DNA from: Holophagales bacterium
GTDB lineage: Bacteria; Acidobacteriota; Thermoanaerobaculia; Multivoradales; Multivoraceae
Direction: 5' to 3'
Length of the DNA stretch: 64,000 nt
Assembly (NCBI GenBank): GCA_009845425.1
Contig: VXZQ01000017.1
Location: forward strand, 273,463-337,462
Shown: piece after piece, positions 56,822 through 64,000 of the stretch
How the letters are laid out: every line of letters starts with the position of its first letter
Numbering within the stretch: the stretch's first letter is position 1
The notes under the pieces: generated by a model
The model's input: only the letters and a program-made list of their open reading frames with translations
Databases searched by the model: none
Told to the model about the DNA's origin: nothing
Translations under genes and position numbers: made by a program

Positions 56822-59236
56822 ATGGCCCAGAACCCGGTAGATGAGCAGGCGGACGCGATCTCGCTGCCCGACGTCCTGCCGGTGCTGCCGCTCAAGGACG
56901 CGGTCATCTTCCCCTACATCATCCTGCCGCTTTCGATCAGTCGCGACCCGAGCATGCTCGCGGTCGAGGACGCGCTGAACGGCGACCGCATCATCCTGCT
57001 CGCCCCCCAGCGCGACGGATCGATCGAGGCGCCGGGAGAGGACGACCTCCACGAGATCGGCACCGCGGCCCAGATCATGCGGATGCTGAAGCTGCCCGAC
57101 GGCCGGGTGCGGATCCTGATCCAGGGTCTCGCCAGAGCCCGCCTGCGCTACCTGAGCCAGACCGAGCCCTTCCTTCGCGCCCGCGTCGAAGAGGTGGACG
57201 AGGCCGGCGAACCCCACCACGGGCTCGAGGCGGAAGCGCTCGTGCGCAGCGTCAAGGAGGGTCTCGAGACGGCCGTCAACCTGGGCAAGGACATCTCCTC
57301 CGAGGTCATGGTGATCGCCGCGAACCTCGATCACCCGGGCCGGCTGGCGGACCTGGCGGCCAGCAACCTCGACCTGCGGGCGGACGAGGCCCAGCTCGTG
57401 CTGGAGACGACGCCGCCCCTCCAGCGGCTACGGAAGGTCGGGGACCTGCTGACCCGGGAGATCGAACTCCTCAGCATGCAGCAGCGGATCTCTGCCCAGG
57501 CCAGGAGCGAGATGGACCGCAGCCAGCGCGAGTACTTCCTTCGCCAGCAGCAGCGGGCGATCCTGGACGAACTCGGCGAAGGCGACGACCTCCACGGGGA
57601 CATCGAACGGTACGTGAGCGCCGTAGAGGAGAAGGGTCTGAGCGAGGAGGCGGCCCTGGAAGTCGAACGCCAGGTCAGACGGCTTGAGCGAAGCTCTCCC
57701 GACAGCGCCGAGAACGCGACCATCCGCACCCACCTCGACTGGCTGACCGGCCTCCCGTGGTCGACCCTGAGCGAGGATCGAATCGACCTCGACCGGGCCC
57801 GCACCGTGCTTGACGAAGATCACTACGACCTGGACCGCGTCAAGGAGCGGATCCTCGAGTACCTGGCGGTCAGGCGGCTCAAGCCGGACGCCAAGGGTCC
57901 GATTCTCTGCCTGGTCGGTCCCCCGGGCGTCGGCAAGACGTCGCTCGGCCGCTCCATTGCCCGCGCAATCGATCACAAGTTCGTTCGCATCTCGCTCGGC
58001 GGCGTCCGCGACGAGGGGGAGATCCGCGGCCACCGCCGCACCTACGTCGGTTCGTTGCCGGGTCGCGTCATCCAGGGCCTGAATCAGGCCGGAACCAGCA
58101 ATCCCGTCTTCATGCTCGACGAGATCGACAAGCTGGGCGCCGACTACCGGGGCGATCCGGCTTCCGCGCTGCTCGAAGTGCTGGATCCCGAGCAGAACTC
58201 GACGTTCAGGGACCACTACCTGGGCGTCGAGTACGACCTTTCGCGCGTGTTGTTCATCGCCACGGCCAATCTGCTCGAACCCATTCAGCCCGCCTTCCTC
58301 GATCGTCTCGAGGTGCTTCGACTCTCCGGCTACACCGAAGACGAAAAGGTACTGATCGCACGCCGCCATCTGTTACCCAAAGCCACGGACGAGAACGGTC
58401 TGCCGGCCGGCGCCCTGACCATCACGACGCCCGCGCTCCGCGGCCTCATTCGCGGCTACACGAAAGAGGCCGGCGTACGCAATCTCGAACGCGAACTCGC
58501 AACTCTCTGCCGGAAAGCGGCCGTACGCGTGGCGCGGGGGGACGGTCGGGAACTGAAAGTGACGCCGGCCCGGCTGAAGAACCTGGTCGGGCAACCGCGT
58601 CACTTCAGCGAGGAACTGCTCGACCGCGACCGGATCGGCGTGGCGACCGGACTCGCCTGGACCGCCTCCGGCGGCGACCTCATGCTGATCGAAGTCGCGG
58701 CGCCGAAGGGCAGGGGCAAACTGATCCTCACCGGTCAACTCGGCGACGTGATGAAGGAGTCGGCCCAGGCGGCGTTGAGTTGCGCCCGCACGACGTACGG
58801 CGCCGGTCCGGGAGCGGGAGGGCCCGATTTCTTCCGTAACCACGACCTCCACATTCATGTCCCCGCCGGTTCCGTACCGAAGGACGGCCCGTCGGCGGGG
58901 GTCACGATTGCCGCCGCCATCGTCTCCGTCTGCAGCGGGCGCATGATCGATCACAAGGTCGCGATGACCGGCGAGATCACGCTGCGCGGCGAAGTGCTCC
59001 CCGTCGGCGGCCTGAAAGAGAAGCTGCTCGCCGCGCGCGGAGCCGGAATTCGCAAGGTCGTCCTGCCGGAACGAAACCGGCGGGACCTTCCGGAGATACC
59101 GGCCGCGGTGACGCGAGGTCTTGAACTCCTGTTCGTCGAACACGTCGATCAGGTCCTGGAAGCCGCCCTTCTGGACCCGGAGTACCGGCTCGATTCGGAG
59201 CACCAGCGGTCATGGCCGGCCGCGAAGACCGGCTGA
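56822..59236 (+). CDS. lon: ATP-dependent protease Lon
   Basis: LON N-domain. Walker [11 protein letters not shown]-terminal proteolytic PKDGPSAG (catalytic Ser). Confidence 0.95.
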
Positions 59237-60204
59237 TCGCCTGGCTCGCGGGCTTCGCGGGCTCTGGAGATCGGATCGGCGACGACGCGGTCCTGCTCAC
59301 GCTCGGCGAGCGGCAGTACGCGTTCAGCGTCGACACGCAGCGCGCCGGCGTCCACATTCCGATCGATCTCGATCCCGCGGACGCAGCCCGCCGGCTGCTT
59401 GCCGTCAGTCTCTCCGATCTCGCCGCCACCGGGGCGATGCCGCGGTGGATGCTCGTCGCACTCGGCATCGACGATGAGGACACCGCCCGCCGTTTCCTCG
59501 CCGCCCTGGTGCGCGCCGGCCGCCGGTACGAAGTCGAACTCATCGGCGGCGACACCGCCAGGCCGACGACGCCGGGCCGGCTGGACGCCAGCCTCACCGT
59601 GGTCGGCGAGATACCGGAAGACGGCTCGCCTCTGACCCGCGACGCGGCTCGACCCGACGACCGGCTCTGGATCGGTGGACCGGTCGGAGAGTCCGCTCTT
59701 GGACTCGACCTGGTCCGCCTCGGCGCCCGGATGGCGAGACGGCGCGCCAACCTGCCCGAGGGGCTTCCCGACGGGCTGACCCGTGTCGCCAGCCGGGTCC
59801 TTCGCCGCCACCTCGAACCCCGGCCCCAGCTCGATCTGGGCCTGCTGCTCGGGCGGCGGTCGCCGGCGGGTGCCGCGATCGACGTGTCCGACGGCCTGGC
59901 CGCCGACGCGGTGCGGCTCTGCCGGCAAAGCGGCGTCGGCTGCGAACTCGAGGAAGGCGCACTCGCCCTCCGGGCCGACGCCCGCCGCCTGGCCGGCCAC
60001 CTGGACCGCGAGCCCCTGGAACTGCTTCTCGCCGGAGGCGAGGACTACGTCCTTCTGTTCACCCTGCCGCCGGACGCCGATCTACGCCATCCCGGGTGCC
60101 GGCCCGTTGGCCGGATCACGACCCGGCCCGGGCTGCGTTTACGCCGAACCGACGGAACGACCGAACCGCTGCCCGCCGGAGGCTGGGACCACCTCAGCGA
60201 TTGA
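59212..60204 (+). CDS. thiL: thiamine-monophosphate kinase
   Basis: AIR-synthase-related fold. N-terminal [10 protein letters not shown]...GDDAV. Overlaps the lon 3' end by 25 nt. Confidence 0.82.
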   Translation: MAGREDRLIAWLAGFAGSGDRIGDDAVLLTLGERQYAFSVDTQRAGVHIPIDLDPADAARRLLAVSLSDLAATGAMPRWMLVALGIDDEDTARRFLAALVRAGRRYEVELIGGDTARPTTPGRLDASLTVVGEIPEDGSPLTRDAARPDDRLWIGGPVGESALGLDLVRLGARMARRRANLPEGLPDGLTRVASRVLRRHLEPRPQLDLGLLLGRRSPAGAAIDVSDGLAADAVRLCRQSGVGCELEEGALALRADARRLAGHLDREPLELLLAGGEDYVLLFTLPPDADLRHPGCRPVGRITTRPGLRLRRTDGTTEPLPAGGWDHLSD

Positions 60205-61108
60205 GCGTGACGGTGATCGGCTGGTCCAGCTTCTGCAGCACCAGGCTCACCTGGGCCTCGAGCGCCGCCAACCTTGCCTCCACGCTGCCGGCCGCCGGCT
60301 GGCGCCTCACCTTGGCGGCTCTCGCCTTGCGCTTTCGCCGCGCCGGCGCCTTCGCGGCGGCCGCAACCTTGGCCTTCGGCTTCCGACCACGCCTGCTCCG
60401 GGAGCGAAGCTCGCGGAACACCGCCACCGCCTCCGGGTGATAGCGCCGCTTGCGGCCCTCGCCCTCGTGCGGTATCCGATCGCCGTACAACTTGAGGTAA
60501 CGCTGCAGCGTCGGACCGGAGATGCCGGTCTGCTGACCGATCGCGGTAAGCGTCAGGAGCTTCGGAGCGGGGGCCGCGGGCGTCGCCGCAACGCGCGCCT
60601 TGCGCTTCTTTCGAGCCGGCGACTTGGCCGCTGCGGCCTTCGGCTTGCGACCCGGCTTGCTCTCCGCTCGAAGCTCGCGGAACACCGCGACGGAATCCGG
60701 GTGGTAGCGCCGCTTGCGACCCTCACCCTCGTGCGGTATCCGATCGCCGAACAACCGGACGTAACGCTGCAACGTCGGATAGGAAATCCCGGTCTGCTGG
60801 CCGATGCTGGACAACGTCAACAGGGACGGACCGCCTGCCGCGCCCTTCGCTTGGGTTCCTGCCGCTTTCGTCGCGGCCTTCTTCTTCCGTCCCGCGCCCC
60901 GACGCTTCGTTGACCGTTCGTTCTTGAACGCCTTGAACTCCCTGACGGCCGCAACCGGATACCGCTGCCTGCGACCCTCACCCTCCGACGAGATCCGGTC
61001 CTGGTACAGCTTCTTGTACCGCAGCGCCGTGGCCATCGAAACACCGGCCCGGCGGGCCACTTCGCCCAACGTCAACAGTTTCTTTCTTCCAGCAGCCGCT
61101 GCACTCAC
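60194..61108 (-). CDS. protein with three tandem MerR/excisionase-type HTH repeats separated by Lys/Ala/Pro-rich linkers and a C-terminal coiled-coil
   Basis: GTG at 61108, preceded by AAGGAGA SD (5-nt spacer). Three ~88-aa repeats (LLTLxxIGQQTGISxPTLQRYxxLYGDRIPHEGEGRKRRYHPxAVAVFRELR + RKPKA/RKKRKA tail). The upstream 80 aa of the track ORF is rejected. Confidence 0.75.
   Translation of the reverse strand: MSAAAAGRKKLLTLGEVARRAGVSMATALRYKKLYQDRISSEGEGRRQRYPVAAVREFKAFKNERSTKRRGAGRKKKAATKAAGTQAKGAAGGPSLLTLSSIGQQTGISYPTLQRYVRLFGDRIPHEGEGRKRRYHPDSVAVFRELRAESKPGRKPKAAAAKSPARKKRKARVAATPAAPAPKLLTLTAIGQQTGISGPTLQRYLKLYGDRIPHEGEGRKRRYHPEAVAVFRELRSRSRRGRKPKAKVAAAAKAPARRKRKARAAKVRRQPAAGSVEARLAALEAQVSLVLQKLDQPITVTLNR
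60400..61075. repeat. intragenic tandem direct repeat, ~264-bp unit (two ~85% identical copies plus one diverged copy)
   Basis: AAGCTCGCGGAACACCGC... recurs at 60407 and 60671. Both DNA and protein periodicity are visible. Confidence 0.8.
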
Positions 61109-61165
61109 GTAGTTCTCCTTGCGCCGCCCTGTGGCGTTTCGGTCCGGTCCTTTCCGGGAAGTGAC

Positions 61166-61194
61166 AATATAGACGAGACGACAACAGAAGACAA
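61166..61194 (-). promoter_or_regulatory. candidate sigma70-type promoter for the triple-HTH gene (-35 TTGTCT, 17-nt spacer, -10 TATATT)
   Basis: An AT-rich patch in an otherwise GC-rich region, ~60 nt upstream of the GTG start on the minus strand. Confidence 0.4.
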
Positions 61195-61548
61195 GAATCG
61201 AAGAAGCCAACCGTGGGAGTGCCGAAGCGGTAGGCCACCTTCCCGCAGGGCCACCGGCGGCACAGTATCTCGTCGGTGCTGGAGCGGGACAGCCGTGGCT
61301 GGCAGCGCCCTCGTGAAGGGGCGTCTTTCGGCAGGCGCGGCGGAGCTCCAAGCTGGCTACTCGGCTCCCCAGCCACCACCAACTCTAGGTCGAGACGCCG
61401 ATGCTAAACGGGGCGGGGCGGGACCCTGGCAGCTCCATCGTGGCTGCTAGCATCGAATCATAGAGATTTCGCTATACTTGGATGCGTTGGCCGACGCACC
61501 TCAACCCCCCTCCCCCGGTGCTGGTACTGACCCTGCGGGCTTGCGAAC

Positions 61549-62676
61549 GTGGCTGGAACCAAGAAGAAACGACTCGCGGCAGGTCGTTCACATCCACTCA
61601 ACGCGATCTGCCCGTACTTCACGATGTTCCCGCTTGACTTCCCGTCCGGTATCTTGGCGCGGCGTGCCGCTGGGGCCAAACTGGTCTTCGACCCCTTTGC
61701 TGGCCGGGGCACTACCCTCTACGCGGCACGCCAGCGAGGCATCCGCGCCATTGGGATTGACTGTTCCCCGGTAGCGGTGGCCATCTCGCGGGCGAAGCTC
61801 GCGGACTTCACGACCGAAGGGCCGCTTGATCTAGCGAAGGTACTTGTCCAAGACCAAGGCCACGTCGAGGTGCCAGAGGGTGAGTTCTGGGAGTCAGCAT
61901 TCCACCCGGAGACATTGAGAGACCTCTGTCGCCTACGAGCGGGCCTCTTGAGCCTGGAAGACAACGATGCGTCCGTAGTACTTCGGGCGACAGCACTAGG
62001 TGTTCTACACGGCCCCATCACGAAAGTTCGAAGCTACCTGTCGAACCAGATGCAGCGCACGTTTTCCCCTAAGCCAAACTATGCCGTGCGATTCTGGAAA
62101 CGCCACGCGCTTGAGCCGCCAAGAGCGAGCGTCCTCGGGGCGCTGCGGCGAAAGCTCGATCTCATGGCCAAGGGTGTCTACCGGACCATCGAAGATGGAT
62201 GGCGAGACGTCCACCTTGGAGACTCTTCGAACTCCAAGTCGTACCGAGGTCTGCCGCCCTCCGTCGACACAGTGATCACGTCCCCTCCGTACTACGGAAT
62301 GAGGACGTATGTCTCTGACCAGTGGTTGCGTCACTGGTTTCTCGGTGGGCCAGACGACGTGGACTATACGACTTCCGGCGACTTGCCGTCATCGAGCCAA
62401 GACGACTTCTCGATCGCGCTCGGTCGGACGTGGACCAACCTAGGCGCCGTGGCGCCCGAAGGCCTCCGGCTGTTTGTGCGGTTCGGTACGATCCCATCCC
62501 GCCGGACGAATCCGCGCAAGCTACTGCTGAGTTCGCTGGAAGCGTCCAGCTTGAGTTGGCACGTCGTCTCGATCCGGAACGCGCGGAATGCGACGGCTGG
62601 CAAGCGCCAAGCAGATCAAATGTGCGGCTCAAGTAAGGCGATTGATGAGCTGGACCTCCATGCGGTCCTGTCCTGA
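61549..62676 (+). CDS. DNA amino-methyltransferase (N6-adenine or N4-cytosine), motif I FDPFAGRGTT then motif IV SPPY
   Basis: AdoMet motif VFDPFAGRGTT at ~aa 48 and catalytic TSPPYYG at ~aa 245. Lower GC (~58%). Start at GTG 61549 or the internal ATG at TMFPLD. Confidence 0.8.
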   Translation: MAGTKKKRLAAGRSHPLNAICPYFTMFPLDFPSGILARRAAGAKLVFDPFAGRGTTLYAARQRGIRAIGIDCSPVAVAISRAKLADFTTEGPLDLAKVLVQDQGHVEVPEGEFWESAFHPETLRDLCRLRAGLLSLEDNDASVVLRATALGVLHGPITKVRSYLSNQMQRTFSPKPNYAVRFWKRHALEPPRASVLGALRRKLDLMAKGVYRTIEDGWRDVHLGDSSNSKSYRGLPPSVDTVITSPPYYGMRTYVSDQWLRHWFLGGPDDVDYTTSGDLPSSSQDDFSIALGRTWTNLGAVAPEGLRLFVRFGTIPSRRTNPRKLLLSSLEASSLSWHVVSIRNARNATAGKRQADQMCGSSKAIDELDLHAVLS

Positions 62677-62679
62677 TCT

Positions 62680-64000
62680 TCAGACCGCGGGGTCACGCCA
62701 ACGAACCGTGATCCCTCTTGGGTCGTAGTCAGAGCCTCGGACCAGACTCGTTATGCGCCGGTCACACCACTCGTCGACCACGCCCCTAAGTGCGTGTGCG
62801 GTTTCAGCGGCGCGACGATCCTCTGGGATGTGGTTGGCCACCTCATCGGAGAGGAACACGATGCACTTTGCCATCGCTCGCGAGATTGCCACGTTGGTCC
62901 GTTCGAGCTGGAGCAGGAACCGCTCCTCGCCCCTAATGACATCCGGGTCGCCGACACCGAAGCTGATGATGATCGTGTGGCGTTCACTGCCCTGGAATCG
63001 TTCAACTGTGTCGACCGCCCCCTCAATCAGCTCAGGGTCGCAATTCGGAAACGTCCTCAGCAGCGTCTGCACGACCTGAGCACGCTGCGCGCGGTGAGGG
63101 GTGACGATGCCCAGACCCTGCTTCCAGAAAGTCTCGTCGTCCCACGGCCCGTGCGTCACTTCGCCAGGTCGGCCAGCCAGATGCTGCGAGGTCGATGATC
63201 GGAGGAGATGAGCAAGGGCAGCGACGCAGTCAGCTTCGAAGCCGTTAGCTTGGCCAGCCATGCCATCGGGGTAGGTGACCGCGACGATGGGCTTGGCAGG
63301 GTCAAGAAGCGTAGTCCAAGCGTCCGACGCGGCTAGGCCCATCTCCGCGAGGCTAGCCATGCAGTCTTCCAGCGGCCTCACTAGGTGGAGCCTAGTACTC
63401 CGGTTTGCCGCGTTCAGGCCAGTGGGGTAGCCGAGTCGCCGCGTGTAGGCCACGATGTCATGGTGGGAACGGTAGTTTTCGAGAAGTGGCACCGGTACCA
63501 CCTCGTCGAACCGCTCGATGAGGTAGTTCTGCAGGCTTCCGATGAGATGCTCGGCCCCTACCGGGGGCTCTCCGACAAAGATCGGAGGCATCTGTAGGTG
63601 GTCGCCGACCACCACCACCTGGAAGCACCGCTTCAAGAGAGCCAGCGGCGCCACTGCAATGCTCATGTCCATCTGAGAGCTCTCATCGATGACGACGAAG
63701 TCGAAGACTTCCCGCAGGGCCTCAGCGCCGTCGCGCTCTACTTTAGCTAGCTCCTCAGCGATCCTGGGGCATTGATGCGCCACGGCCGCGACGATCACGA
63801 CTCGACTTCCCTCTATAAAGTCAACTGCCATCTGCCGAAAGTGCGCGTTCGCCTCCTCCGCAAACGTCTCGAAGACTTCCATGTGTGTTCCGGTGTCCGT
63901 GGGTAACGGAAACCGGTCGTCGCGATAGCGCGAGTAAACCGGGTACAACCTGCACACCGAGGCCGGATCCTCAGCCAGTCCGTGGGCCAGTCTCCCGATG
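62680..64000 (-). CDS. superfamily 1B helicase, Upf1/DNA2-like (AAA_12 C-terminal domain). 5'-truncated, continues beyond window end
   Basis: Motif II VVIDESSQM, motif III VVVGDHLQMPP, motif V/VI TVERFQGSERHTIIIS. Walker A must lie upstream of the window edge. Convergent with the MTase, 3 nt apart. Lower GC. Confidence 0.8.
   Translation of the reverse strand, partial: IGRLAHGLAEDPASVCRLYPVYSRYRDDRFPLPTDTGTHMEVFETFAEEANAHFRQMAVDFIEGSRVVIVAAVAHQCPRIAEELAKVERDGAEALREVFDFVVIDESSQMDMSIAVAPLALLKRCFQVVVVGDHLQMPPIFVGEPPVGAEHLIGSLQNYLIERFDEVVPVPLLENYRSHHDIVAYTRRLGYPTGLNAANRSTRLHLVRPLEDCMASLAEMGLAASDAWTTLLDPAKPIVAVTYPDGMAGQANGFEADCVAALAHLLRSSTSQHLAGRPGEVTHGPWDDETFWKQGLGIVTPHRAQRAQVVQTLLRTFPNCDPELIEGAVDTVERFQGSERHTIIISFGVGDPDVIRGEERFLLQLERTNVAISRAMAKCIVFLSDEVANHIPEDRRAAETAHALRGVVDEWCDRRITSLVRGSDYDPRGITVRWRDPAV

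Follow-up and report, generated by a model that had tools for sequence, protein, structure and literature searches.

What might a single bacterial protein do that carries three winged helix-turn-helix (wHTH) modules on one chain, separated by disordered and strongly basic linkers? The question is raised by a minus-strand gene in a 64,000-nucleotide stretch of a Holophagales bacterium genome (GenBank assembly GCA_009845425.1, contig VXZQ01000017.1, positions 273,463 to 337,462; the window in what follows), whose 304-residue product has a net charge of +55 and a pI of 11.7. The reading that we favour, with our confidence about evenly divided, is that of a vertically inherited chromosomal architectural DNA-binding protein of the Thermoanaerobaculia, acting as a nucleoid-associated protein or as a global regulator. 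The protein itself is uncharacterised and is assembled from known parts. An initial annotation of the window had raised two functions, a nucleoid-associated protein and a reader of direct repeats, and these remain the two leading readings.

To our knowledge, detailed study of bacterial chromatin proteins has been limited to a few phyla, and we know of no characterised nucleoid-associated proteins or global regulators from the Acidobacteriota, especially from the uncultured Candidatus Multivoraceae that live as symbionts of sponges and corals. Literature searches that combined AT-hook, MerR and Acidobacteria, or Acidobacteriota with nucleoid-associated protein, histone H1 or AT-hook, returned no paper on this family, and searches on tandem helix-turn-helix (HTH) or AT-hook nucleoid-associated proteins and on Multivorans, Thermoanaerobaculia or sponge returned unrelated papers only.

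Predicted modules, linkers and mode of DNA binding

The open reading frame (ORF) ends at 60194 and could, in the longest form given by the ORF list, open at 61351. In an alignment of 16 related loci, the GTG at 61108 and the AAGGAG ahead of it are invariant columns, and database homologues share the N-terminus MSAAAAGRKK with the window protein; on these comparisons, GTG 61108 is the correct start. Measured against ten orthologues, the ratio of nonsynonymous to synonymous divergence (dN/dS) is 0.08-0.28 for the whole gene, 0.03-0.18 for the HTH cores and 0.11-0.55 for the linkers. Long spurious ORFs are common in this high-GC DNA, an example being the antisense ORF at 59783-60913, and the three-module frame could on that account be imagined as no gene but a non-coding tandem repeat left open by high GC. 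We give this possibility practically no weight. Its low dN/dS tightens further in the HTH cores, the start codon and Shine-Dalgarno sequence are conserved, hundreds of homologues keep the same architecture down to ~41% identity, and the predicted folds are confident. The conservation pattern refutes the non-coding reading, and because of these same features the three-module ORF is a real gene under purifying selection.

The window protein passes the cut-offs of two related Pfam models, MerR_1 (40.7 bits against 21.6) and HTH_17 (37.5 bits against 27, in three stretches). No NCBIfam model scored above its cut-off, and the searches with Pfam and NCBIfam revealed no other domain in the protein, effector or sensor domains included. 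A full-length AlphaFold2 (AF2) model, built with an alignment of 83 sequences, contains three modules of the topology strand-helix-helix-strand-strand-helix at a predicted local distance difference test score (pLDDT) of mostly 86-94 (86-94 over residues 11-60 for module 1). Its predicted template modelling score (pTM) is 0.29 and no contacts between modules are predicted; this low pTM indicates, for the model, beads on a string with no fixed inter-module arrangement. Modelled as a single unit, module 2 reaches a pLDDT of 94.3, and Foldseek matches that unit to Pukovnik Xis (the top match), the DNA-binding domain of RacA, CarH, SoxR, BldC and RdfS, with template modelling (TM) scores of 0.6-0.75 and probabilities of 0.9-1.0. 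The small size of the domain holds the accompanying E-values to only 0.03-0.3. Sequence searches of solved structures with the full protein and with a 38-unit profile were marginal (best E 0.0047-0.06), the sole full-domain match being CarH (E 0.014-0.06), and the assignment of the fold therefore rests on Pfam together with AF2 and Foldseek. The predicted structures show three independently folded MerR/Xis-type wHTH modules.

The linkers between these modules are predicted to be disordered, with pLDDT below 50 at residues 80-92 in linker 1, 157-180 in linker 2 and 246-270 in linker 3. Alanine, lysine, arginine and proline make up 58-84% of the linkers overall and 83-84% of linkers 2 and 3 (83% of linker 2). 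KRRGAGRKKK in linker 1 aligns with the canonical AT-hook RRGRPRK of homologues that have two units. In linker 2, G153 and R154 reach at least 90% conservation, and in linker 3, R240, G241 and R242 are nearly invariant, the RGR core being at least 90% conserved in the family. The C-terminal helix spans about 22 residues at a pLDDT of ~94, and 118 of 121 family members (the query and 120 listed homologues, the set used below for module counts as well) share the motif of the tail behind it; P297 within this tail is invariant. Together, R240-G241-R242 and P297 are among the most conserved positions outside the HTH modules.

How the linker motifs are to be named deserves some care. The window protein contains GRKPK and RRGRKPK, no RGRP, and no match to Pfam AT_hook. 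RGRP occurs in 27 of the 121 members, and Pfam AT_hook stays below its cut-off in every member tested, RGRP carriers included (12.9 bits against 17.4 in homologue P0102). On this sequence evidence the motif is best called AT-hook-like, not a canonical AT-hook. H1-like tails are found on actinobacterial HU and on AlgP. Two homologues, P0128 and P0142, carry AAPKAAAPK repeats, and the label H1-like denotes here a compositional resemblance of the linkers, with no homology. The initial annotation had described MerR/excisionase-type HTH modules, with which MerR_1, HTH_17, AF2 and Foldseek all agree, and histone-tail-like Lys/Ala linkers, which are indeed basic, disordered and rich in A, K, R and P; the terminal coiled-coil that it had proposed is borne out as one predicted helix, residues 274-295.

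These parts could be combined into a mode of DNA binding. After the example of MerR, BldC and Xis proteins, the recognition helix of each module (PTLQRY) would occupy a major groove, and the basic wing (GRKRRY) would sit in the neighbouring minor groove or close to it; the units retain an Arg-aromatic pair in the helix (QRY) and the GRKRRY wing. The linker motifs (RGR/GRKPK, SPxRKKRK and the Ala/Lys/Pro tracts) would lie in the minor groove and neutralise phosphates in the manner of AT-hooks and H1 tails. The outcome would be binding of high affinity and little sequence specificity, perhaps with some preference for AT-rich DNA. If the C-terminal helix and tail oligomerise, one complex would hold six or more HTH modules and could coat, bend or bridge DNA. 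We favour an architectural role because winged-HTH domains, AT-hook/RGR motifs and basic linkers are known to contact DNA elsewhere. H-NS and Lsr2 combine a Q/RGR minor-groove motif and basic linkers with an oligomerisation domain (PMC6936261); RGRP AT-hooks or RGR motifs enter AT-rich minor grooves in CarD, H-NS and Lsr2, and basic linkers help in non-specific recruitment (PMC4374960, PMC6936261). As relayed in PMC4374960 from the study cited there as reference 5, HMGA-type and H1-type tails are interchangeable in CarD function.

Age of the repeats and variation in module number

The three units each start at LLTL, at residues 11, 96 and 184, and are 85, 88 and 88 residues long, much as the initial annotation had it with three repeats of ~88 residues. 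In a self-comparison of the coding DNA, 264 nt is the only offset within 150-400 nt that exceeds 40% identity. Tandem Repeats Finder reported no 264-nt array; only the self-offset scan and the protein sequence reveal the repeat. Identity between units 2 and 3 amounts to 83% in DNA and 85% in protein within the 52-codon HTH core, and over the whole 88-codon unit to 68% in DNA in register (74% with gaps) and 71% in protein (with gaps). Unit 1 is more distant from both, at ~56% identity in DNA and 39-41% in protein. The earlier description of two copies about 85% identical and a diverged third therefore holds for the core, at 83% in DNA, and not for the unit as a whole, at 68-74%.

That description had also called the 264-bp tandem duplication recent, a claim that does not survive comparison with relatives. 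Units 2 and 3 pair orthologously in all 49 three-unit homologues compared, down to ~58% protein identity, and because of this pairing the duplication is old: it predates the Candidatus Multivoraceae clade and is fixed there. With three units fixed, gain or loss of the 264-nt unit between strains, a point that the initial annotation wished to see checked, is unlikely. In the window, synonymous divergence (dS) between the cores of units 2 and 3 is 0.47, and stretches of 24 and 20 nt, a rare ATA codon among them, are identical in both. Between the unit-2 core of the window and its orthologues in deep three-unit relatives, dS is higher, at 0.8-1.6. The low divergence within the gene could stem from patchy gene conversion or from convergence through codon bias, and may be where the impression of recency came from.

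A word-indexed protein search returned 744 homologues, the best of them 97-98% identical, under automated names only ('hypothetical protein', 'MerR regulator', 'AlpA', 'excisionase family'). When 1.84 billion cluster representatives were searched exhaustively with a hidden Markov model (HMM), 89 clusters matched at E<=1e-30 and 729 at E<=1e-3, and the family is therefore small. A scan of one genome per species gave 207 loci, of which 77 were kept, each from a different genome and each with the gene; all 77 belong to the Acidobacteriota, the great majority to the class Thermoanaerobaculia.

Repeat number does vary among relatives, as the initial annotation had thought worth checking, with two, three or five modules in the family. 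Three modules are present in 81 of the 121 sequences, two in 38, five in 1 and a single one, in a fragment, in 1. The two-unit form comes from loci labelled Thermoanaerobaculum sp., Thermoanaerobaculaceae, Candidatus Multivoradales and other metagenome-assembled genomes of Thermoanaerobaculia or Acidobacteriota. Its N-terminal half consists of a type-A module (SMPTLQRYKK...GRxQRY), the AT-hook RRGRPRK and, often, a long AKP-rich tract; its C-terminal half consists of a type-B module (SYPTLxRYVK...GRxRRY), RGRKPK, the helix and a conserved tail, KP-h-x-V-x-h-x-R. The three-unit form is that of Candidatus Multivorans/Multivoraceae. It adds a second type-B module, and its type-A module can be aligned with that of the two-unit form. 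We infer from these sequences that the two-module form is ancestral and that the third module arose by duplication of type B in an ancestor of Candidatus Multivoraceae. Linker lengths in the family range from ~30 to more than 90 residues.

A few members depart further from this plan. P0121 (853 aa) carries four near-identical type-A modules fused to an N-terminal region of unrelated sequence; the four copies reflect either recent amplification or faulty assembly. Five modules were counted in P0094 and in P0191, and about four in P0194; RGRP/RGRKPK hooks were not seen in these sequences. In P0076 and P0077, acidic VEAxxVAVRDQLEA repeats are expanded ahead of the C-terminal helix.

Inheritance, the adjoining island and expression signals

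The gene keeps constant company across its class. thiL lies convergently downstream in at least 67 of the 77 loci, two-unit orthologues at 41-58% identity included, and lon follows thiL in 66 of them, the remaining thiL locus ending inside thiL. Among the ten loci in which thiL was not seen, six stop just past the HTH gene. Over the 77 loci, the thiL-lon pair represents the only conserved neighbours, with no other partner gene. G+C content at third codon positions (GC3) is 0.82 for the HTH gene, close to thiL (0.84) and lon (0.85), and no homologues were found in phage, plasmid or IMG/VR collections. Because the synteny with thiL-lon is kept, GC3 is host-like and mobile-element collections lack relatives, the HTH gene is a vertically inherited core gene. 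The convergent overlap of its 3' end with that of thiL, 11 nt according to the initial annotation, agrees with the ORF coordinates. The start of thiL overlaps the end of lon by 25 nt (59212-59236), and the lon-thiL pair is conserved across the class.

Upstream of the gene, G+C content falls from ~0.69-0.72 to 0.61-0.63 past 61000, in line with the earlier placement of the gene at the boundary of a low-GC island. The island is seen from 61201 to the window end at 64000 only, and continues past it; its genes have a GC3 of 0.70-0.73, and those visible match the MTase_II and DpdJ/Mko helicase models of PADLOC, with no mad genes. In blastn comparisons, every alignment to the 77 related loci ends within 61110-61201, and 61202-64000 is left uncovered. 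In close relatives, the place upstream is taken, on the same strand and at a gap of ~97 nt, by a gene for a 1081-residue activator with tetratricopeptide repeats, a sigma-54-interaction AAA+ domain and a Fis-type HTH (2658-5903 in locus L001), ahead of which stands a gene of the 5-enolpyruvylshikimate-3-phosphate (EPSP) synthase fold (1336-2661 in L001; same positions in the other three-unit loci). Two-unit loci have different upstream neighbours, such as an Opp-type permease in L040. The low-GC stretch probably belongs to a defence island that entered between the HTH gene and the sigma-54 activator gene of the relatives. The HTH gene, itself outside the island, stands at its edge because the insertion fell in the upstream intergenic region of the gene; and the position on which the initial annotation remarked has no bearing on function, the island being confined to this window and the gene being kept in relatives.

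Signals for expression are strongest in the two-unit loci. A sigma-70 promoter with at least 10 of 12 consensus matches lies 50-120 nt upstream of the start in 27 of 38 such loci (L040-L077), for example TTGACT-16-TATAAT or TTGACA-17-GATAAT; the spacer is often T-rich immediately ahead of the -10 element, and a leader of ~50-120 nt follows. Among random 220-nt windows drawn from these loci, only 0.6% reach that score. A near-consensus promoter combined with a strong Shine-Dalgarno sequence suggests high expression in the family. The scan upstream of the window gene gave one site (Table 1) where 0.1 was expected. Three-unit loci share an invariant block, TTCTGnTnTnnTnnC, which reads TGcTATcGT in relatives and resembles an extended -10 element. 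The window alone, in comparison with L001-L031, has a G at the second -10 position of the TGcTATcGT block (the equivalent of A(-11)), and its TATATT hexamer lies 12 nt downstream of the conserved block, where relatives have none. To judge from the sequence, promoter turnover may have occurred at the island junction. The 5' leader showed no supported consensus RNA structure (2 pairs, no covariation), no Rfam match was found in 59-64 kb, and no operator-like repeats were found upstream of the gene beyond the promoter-like block. A weak 10-nt periodicity of decamers starting with TC was considered as an operator within that block and set aside, being indistinguishable from a promoter footprint.

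Table 1. Coordinates within the window of the HTH gene, the parts of its product and the neighbouring features
Feature	Position	Strand	Remarks
Three-module protein, coding sequence	60194..61108	-	GTG start; 304 aa + stop
Shine-Dalgarno AAGGAG	61115..61120	-	6 nt ahead of GTG; invariant in 16 relatives
Winged-HTH module 1	60923..61078	-	aa 11-62; type A, ...SMATALRYKKLYQDRI...GRRQRY; unit-core hmmsearch
Linker 1	60824..60922	-	aa 63-95; start prolongs helix 3, then disordered basic KRRGAGRKKK; net charge +9
Winged-HTH module 2	60668..60823	-	aa 96-147; type B, ISYPTLQRYV...GRKRRYHP; Pfam MerR_1 best stretch 98-148
Linker 2	60560..60667	-	aa 148-183; PGRKPK, KSPARKKRKA, Ala/Pro tract; disordered; net charge +11
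Winged-HTH module 3	60404..60559	-	aa 184-235; type B, ISGPTLQRYL...GRKRRYHP; paralogue of module 2
Linker 3	60293..60403	-	aa 236-272; RRGRKPK, then Lys/Arg/Ala tract; disordered; net charge +17
C-terminal module	60197..60292	-	aa 273-304; amphipathic helix 274-295, then tail QPITVTLNR
Sigma-70-like promoter candidate TTGTCT-17-TATATT	61166..61194	-	9/12 matches; overlaps TTCTGnTnTnnTnnC; at island junction
thiL	59212-60204	+	TIGR01379, 211.8 bits vs cut-off 184
Convergent 3' overlap, HTH gene / thiL	60194..60204	.	11 nt
End of nucleotide homology / island junction	61191..61201	.	85-95 nt upstream of start codon
Type II-like DNA methyltransferase, island	61549-62676	+	PADLOC MTase_II 5.9e-17
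Superfamily 1 (SF1) helicase-like ORF, island	62680 to beyond 64000	-	Open at window end; DpdJ-like 1.4e-32, PLuB helicase-like 2.2e-24

Possible roles and comparison with known systems

An architectural role has to be weighed against several others, and some observations tell against it. The recognition helix and wing are almost invariant throughout the class, which would fit the reading of one specific motif equally well. The window protein is without the canonical RGRP, and Pfam AT_hook falls short of its cut-off in the members tested; oligomerisation through the C-terminal helix is itself a prediction. The promoter evidence is likewise uneven, no three-unit locus scoring above 8/12 and the best in the three-unit clade, the window included, being 7-9/12. 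A sequence-specific transcription factor, which we consider possible but doubtful, would use its three linked wHTH modules to read three direct-repeat sites (six in a dimer), as a single-chain counterpart of BldC to which the linkers add affinity. BldC, a MerR-like wHTH protein without effector domain whose chains are among the Foldseek matches at 20-36% identity, does bind 9-bp direct repeats head-to-tail (PMC5859096), and TraN, with two MerR-like wHTH domains in one chain, reads asymmetric half-sites (PMC6158623). The near invariance of PTLQRY and GRKRRY suits such a factor, as does a consistent difference in the helix between type A (SMxTxQRYKK) and type B (SYPTLxRYVK) that suggests distinct half-site preferences. 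However, BldC protomers touch each other, whereas the modules here are joined by disordered linkers of 33-37 residues with no predicted contacts between them; a fixed operator geometry would not usually go with such wide variation in module number and linker length; the search upstream of the gene found no repeated operator-like motif beyond the promoter-like block; and the extreme charge and H1-like tracts are atypical of specific regulators.

Two further roles draw on other resemblances. The protein could act as a RacA-like adaptor for chromosome anchoring or segregation, its wHTH modules on dispersed sites and its C-terminal helix and tail on a partner or polar scaffold. The DNA-binding domain of RacA is among the best structural matches (TM-score to the query, TMq, 0.71-0.74; root-mean-square deviation 2.0-2.8), the combination of MerR-like wHTH and C-terminal helical region recalls RacA, and the helix and tail form the most conserved element outside the HTH modules (118/121 members). 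Nevertheless, a helix of ~22 residues contrasts with the long coiled coil of RacA, the convergent thiL-lon pair leaves no conserved adjoining gene as a partner, the AT-hook/H1-like linkers have no counterpart in RacA and the similarity to its sequence is insignificant (E 0.84), all of which makes this role improbable. An excisionase, or a regulator of the adjoining methyltransferase and helicase island in the manner of mad1 of the MADS defence system, is suggested by HTH_17, by phrog_66 ('excisionase and transcriptional regulator', 1.6e-13 to module 1), by the PADLOC mad1 model (1.3e-13 to module 3 only, residues 184-232) and by the proximity of the type II-like methyltransferase and the DpdJ/PLuB-like helicase. 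We regard it as very improbable. The thiL-lon context recurs in at least 67 related genomes, all of them without the island; close relatives have the sigma-54 activator upstream instead; GC3 is host-like and unlike that of the island; and relatives are absent from phage, plasmid and viral contig collections, with no tRNA nearby (55-64 kb). Synteny, codon composition and the lack of relatives in mobile-element collections were accordingly the grounds for rejecting the excisionase or island-regulator reading. MAD1 has moreover been described as accessory and as similar to regulators that are widespread (10.1101/2023.03.30.534895), and we judge the mad1 and phrog_66 matches to be domain-level likeness to widespread small HTH regulators. 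The mad1 match was set down as generic HTH similarity; a MADS system would have its mandatory mad6-8 genes alongside, and the 77 loci show no regular association of the family with integrase or MADS genes.

Returning to the architectural DNA-binding protein that we favour, a bolder and decidedly tentative version of it, which we think somewhat unlikely, is that the family constitutes the principal chromatin protein of the Thermoanaerobaculia and an undescribed type of nucleoid-associated protein, one with BldC/Xis-like modules, eukaryote-like AT-hook/H1-like linkers and oligomerisation through a short C-terminal helix. A principal chromatin protein of this kind could seek out AT-rich tracts in a genome of ~70% GC and, by analogy with Lsr2 and H-NS, take part in xenogeneic silencing. 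Module number (2, 3, 5) would then have been retuned in step with rising genome GC among the Multivoraceae associated with sponges and corals, and the change from RGRP to GRKPK with Lys/Ala tracts would belong to the same GC-linked retuning. If true, this would be a new architecture for a DNA organiser, encoded by a class-wide and apparently single-copy gene that joins MerR/Xis/BldC-type modules to AT-hook/H1-like linkers; it would match BldC and Xis filaments as a natural counterpart built on one chain, and would exemplify a DNA-binding protein whose module number changes over evolutionary time. If the protein is an ordinary specific regulator, its interest is confined to the unusual domain arrangement.

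Among characterised proteins, BldC of Streptomyces, the founding member of its family (PDB 6ama, 6amk), is similar in having a MerR-type wHTH without effector domain, a basic GxRRY-type wing and an Arg-bearing recognition helix, and in that several wHTH domains are expected to line up on DNA; a window module matches it in Foldseek with TM 0.59-0.66 at the identities given above. Its key contacts are made by the recognition-helix Arg and a His-Arg-Arg wing, the basic wing lying in the AT-rich minor groove (PMC5859096). BldC is, however, a single domain of 68 residues that forms a non-covalent head-to-tail multimer on its 9-bp repeats (PMC5859096), whereas the window family has two, three or five covalent modules, long disordered basic linkers and a C-terminal helix. 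TraN of plasmid pIP501 (PDB 4pm3), also in the Foldseek list, places two MerR-like winged helices of one chain on adjacent major grooves (PMC6158623). It differs in being a compact internal dimer of fixed geometry and a plasmid-encoded specific repressor, with neither disordered basic linkers nor a C-terminal helix.

The classical MerR proteins (CarH, SoxR, BmrR, CueR) share the N-terminal wHTH topology and wing signature, as the MerR_1 score attests; CarH is the best sequence match among solved structures (E 0.014-0.06), and Foldseek also finds SoxR and BmrR. Unlike them, the window protein has three DNA-binding domains per chain in place of one, no effector or sensor domain, and no long antiparallel coiled-coil straight after the wHTH: AF2 models a 12-residue helix at the end of modules 2 and 3, with the disordered linker behind it, and a lone 22-residue helix stands at the C-terminus. 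Xis-type factors (lambda Xis, Pukovnik Xis, RdfS; HTH_17) have the same small wHTH fold, Pukovnik Xis being the top Foldseek match, and act as architectural arrays on DNA. In contrast to these, the window gene has core synteny and no integrase or mobile element, and encodes several modules with basic linkers. RacA of Bacillus subtilis (PDB 5i41, 5i44) also pairs a MerR-like wHTH with a C-terminal helical region at the TMq already given, but has one wHTH, a long coiled coil and no AT-hook-like linkers; its targets are GC-rich inverted repeats, to which it binds as a symmetric dimer (PMC5859096).

Finally, Myxococcus CarD and the silencers H-NS, Lsr2, MvaT and Rok resemble the window protein in their disordered basic segments for the minor groove, with RGRP, RGR or AKP repeats (PMC4374960, PMC6936261). 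The H-NS-like silencers also combine an oligomerisation element, a basic linker and a DNA-binding domain, which in Rok is likewise a winged helix. In the window protein, the elements occur in a different order, on different folds and with no homology to any protein of this group, CarD, HU and AlgP included; its folded modules, unlike those of the CarD/H-NS group, are of MerR/Xis type and repeated, and its putative oligomerisation element is a short C-terminal helix.

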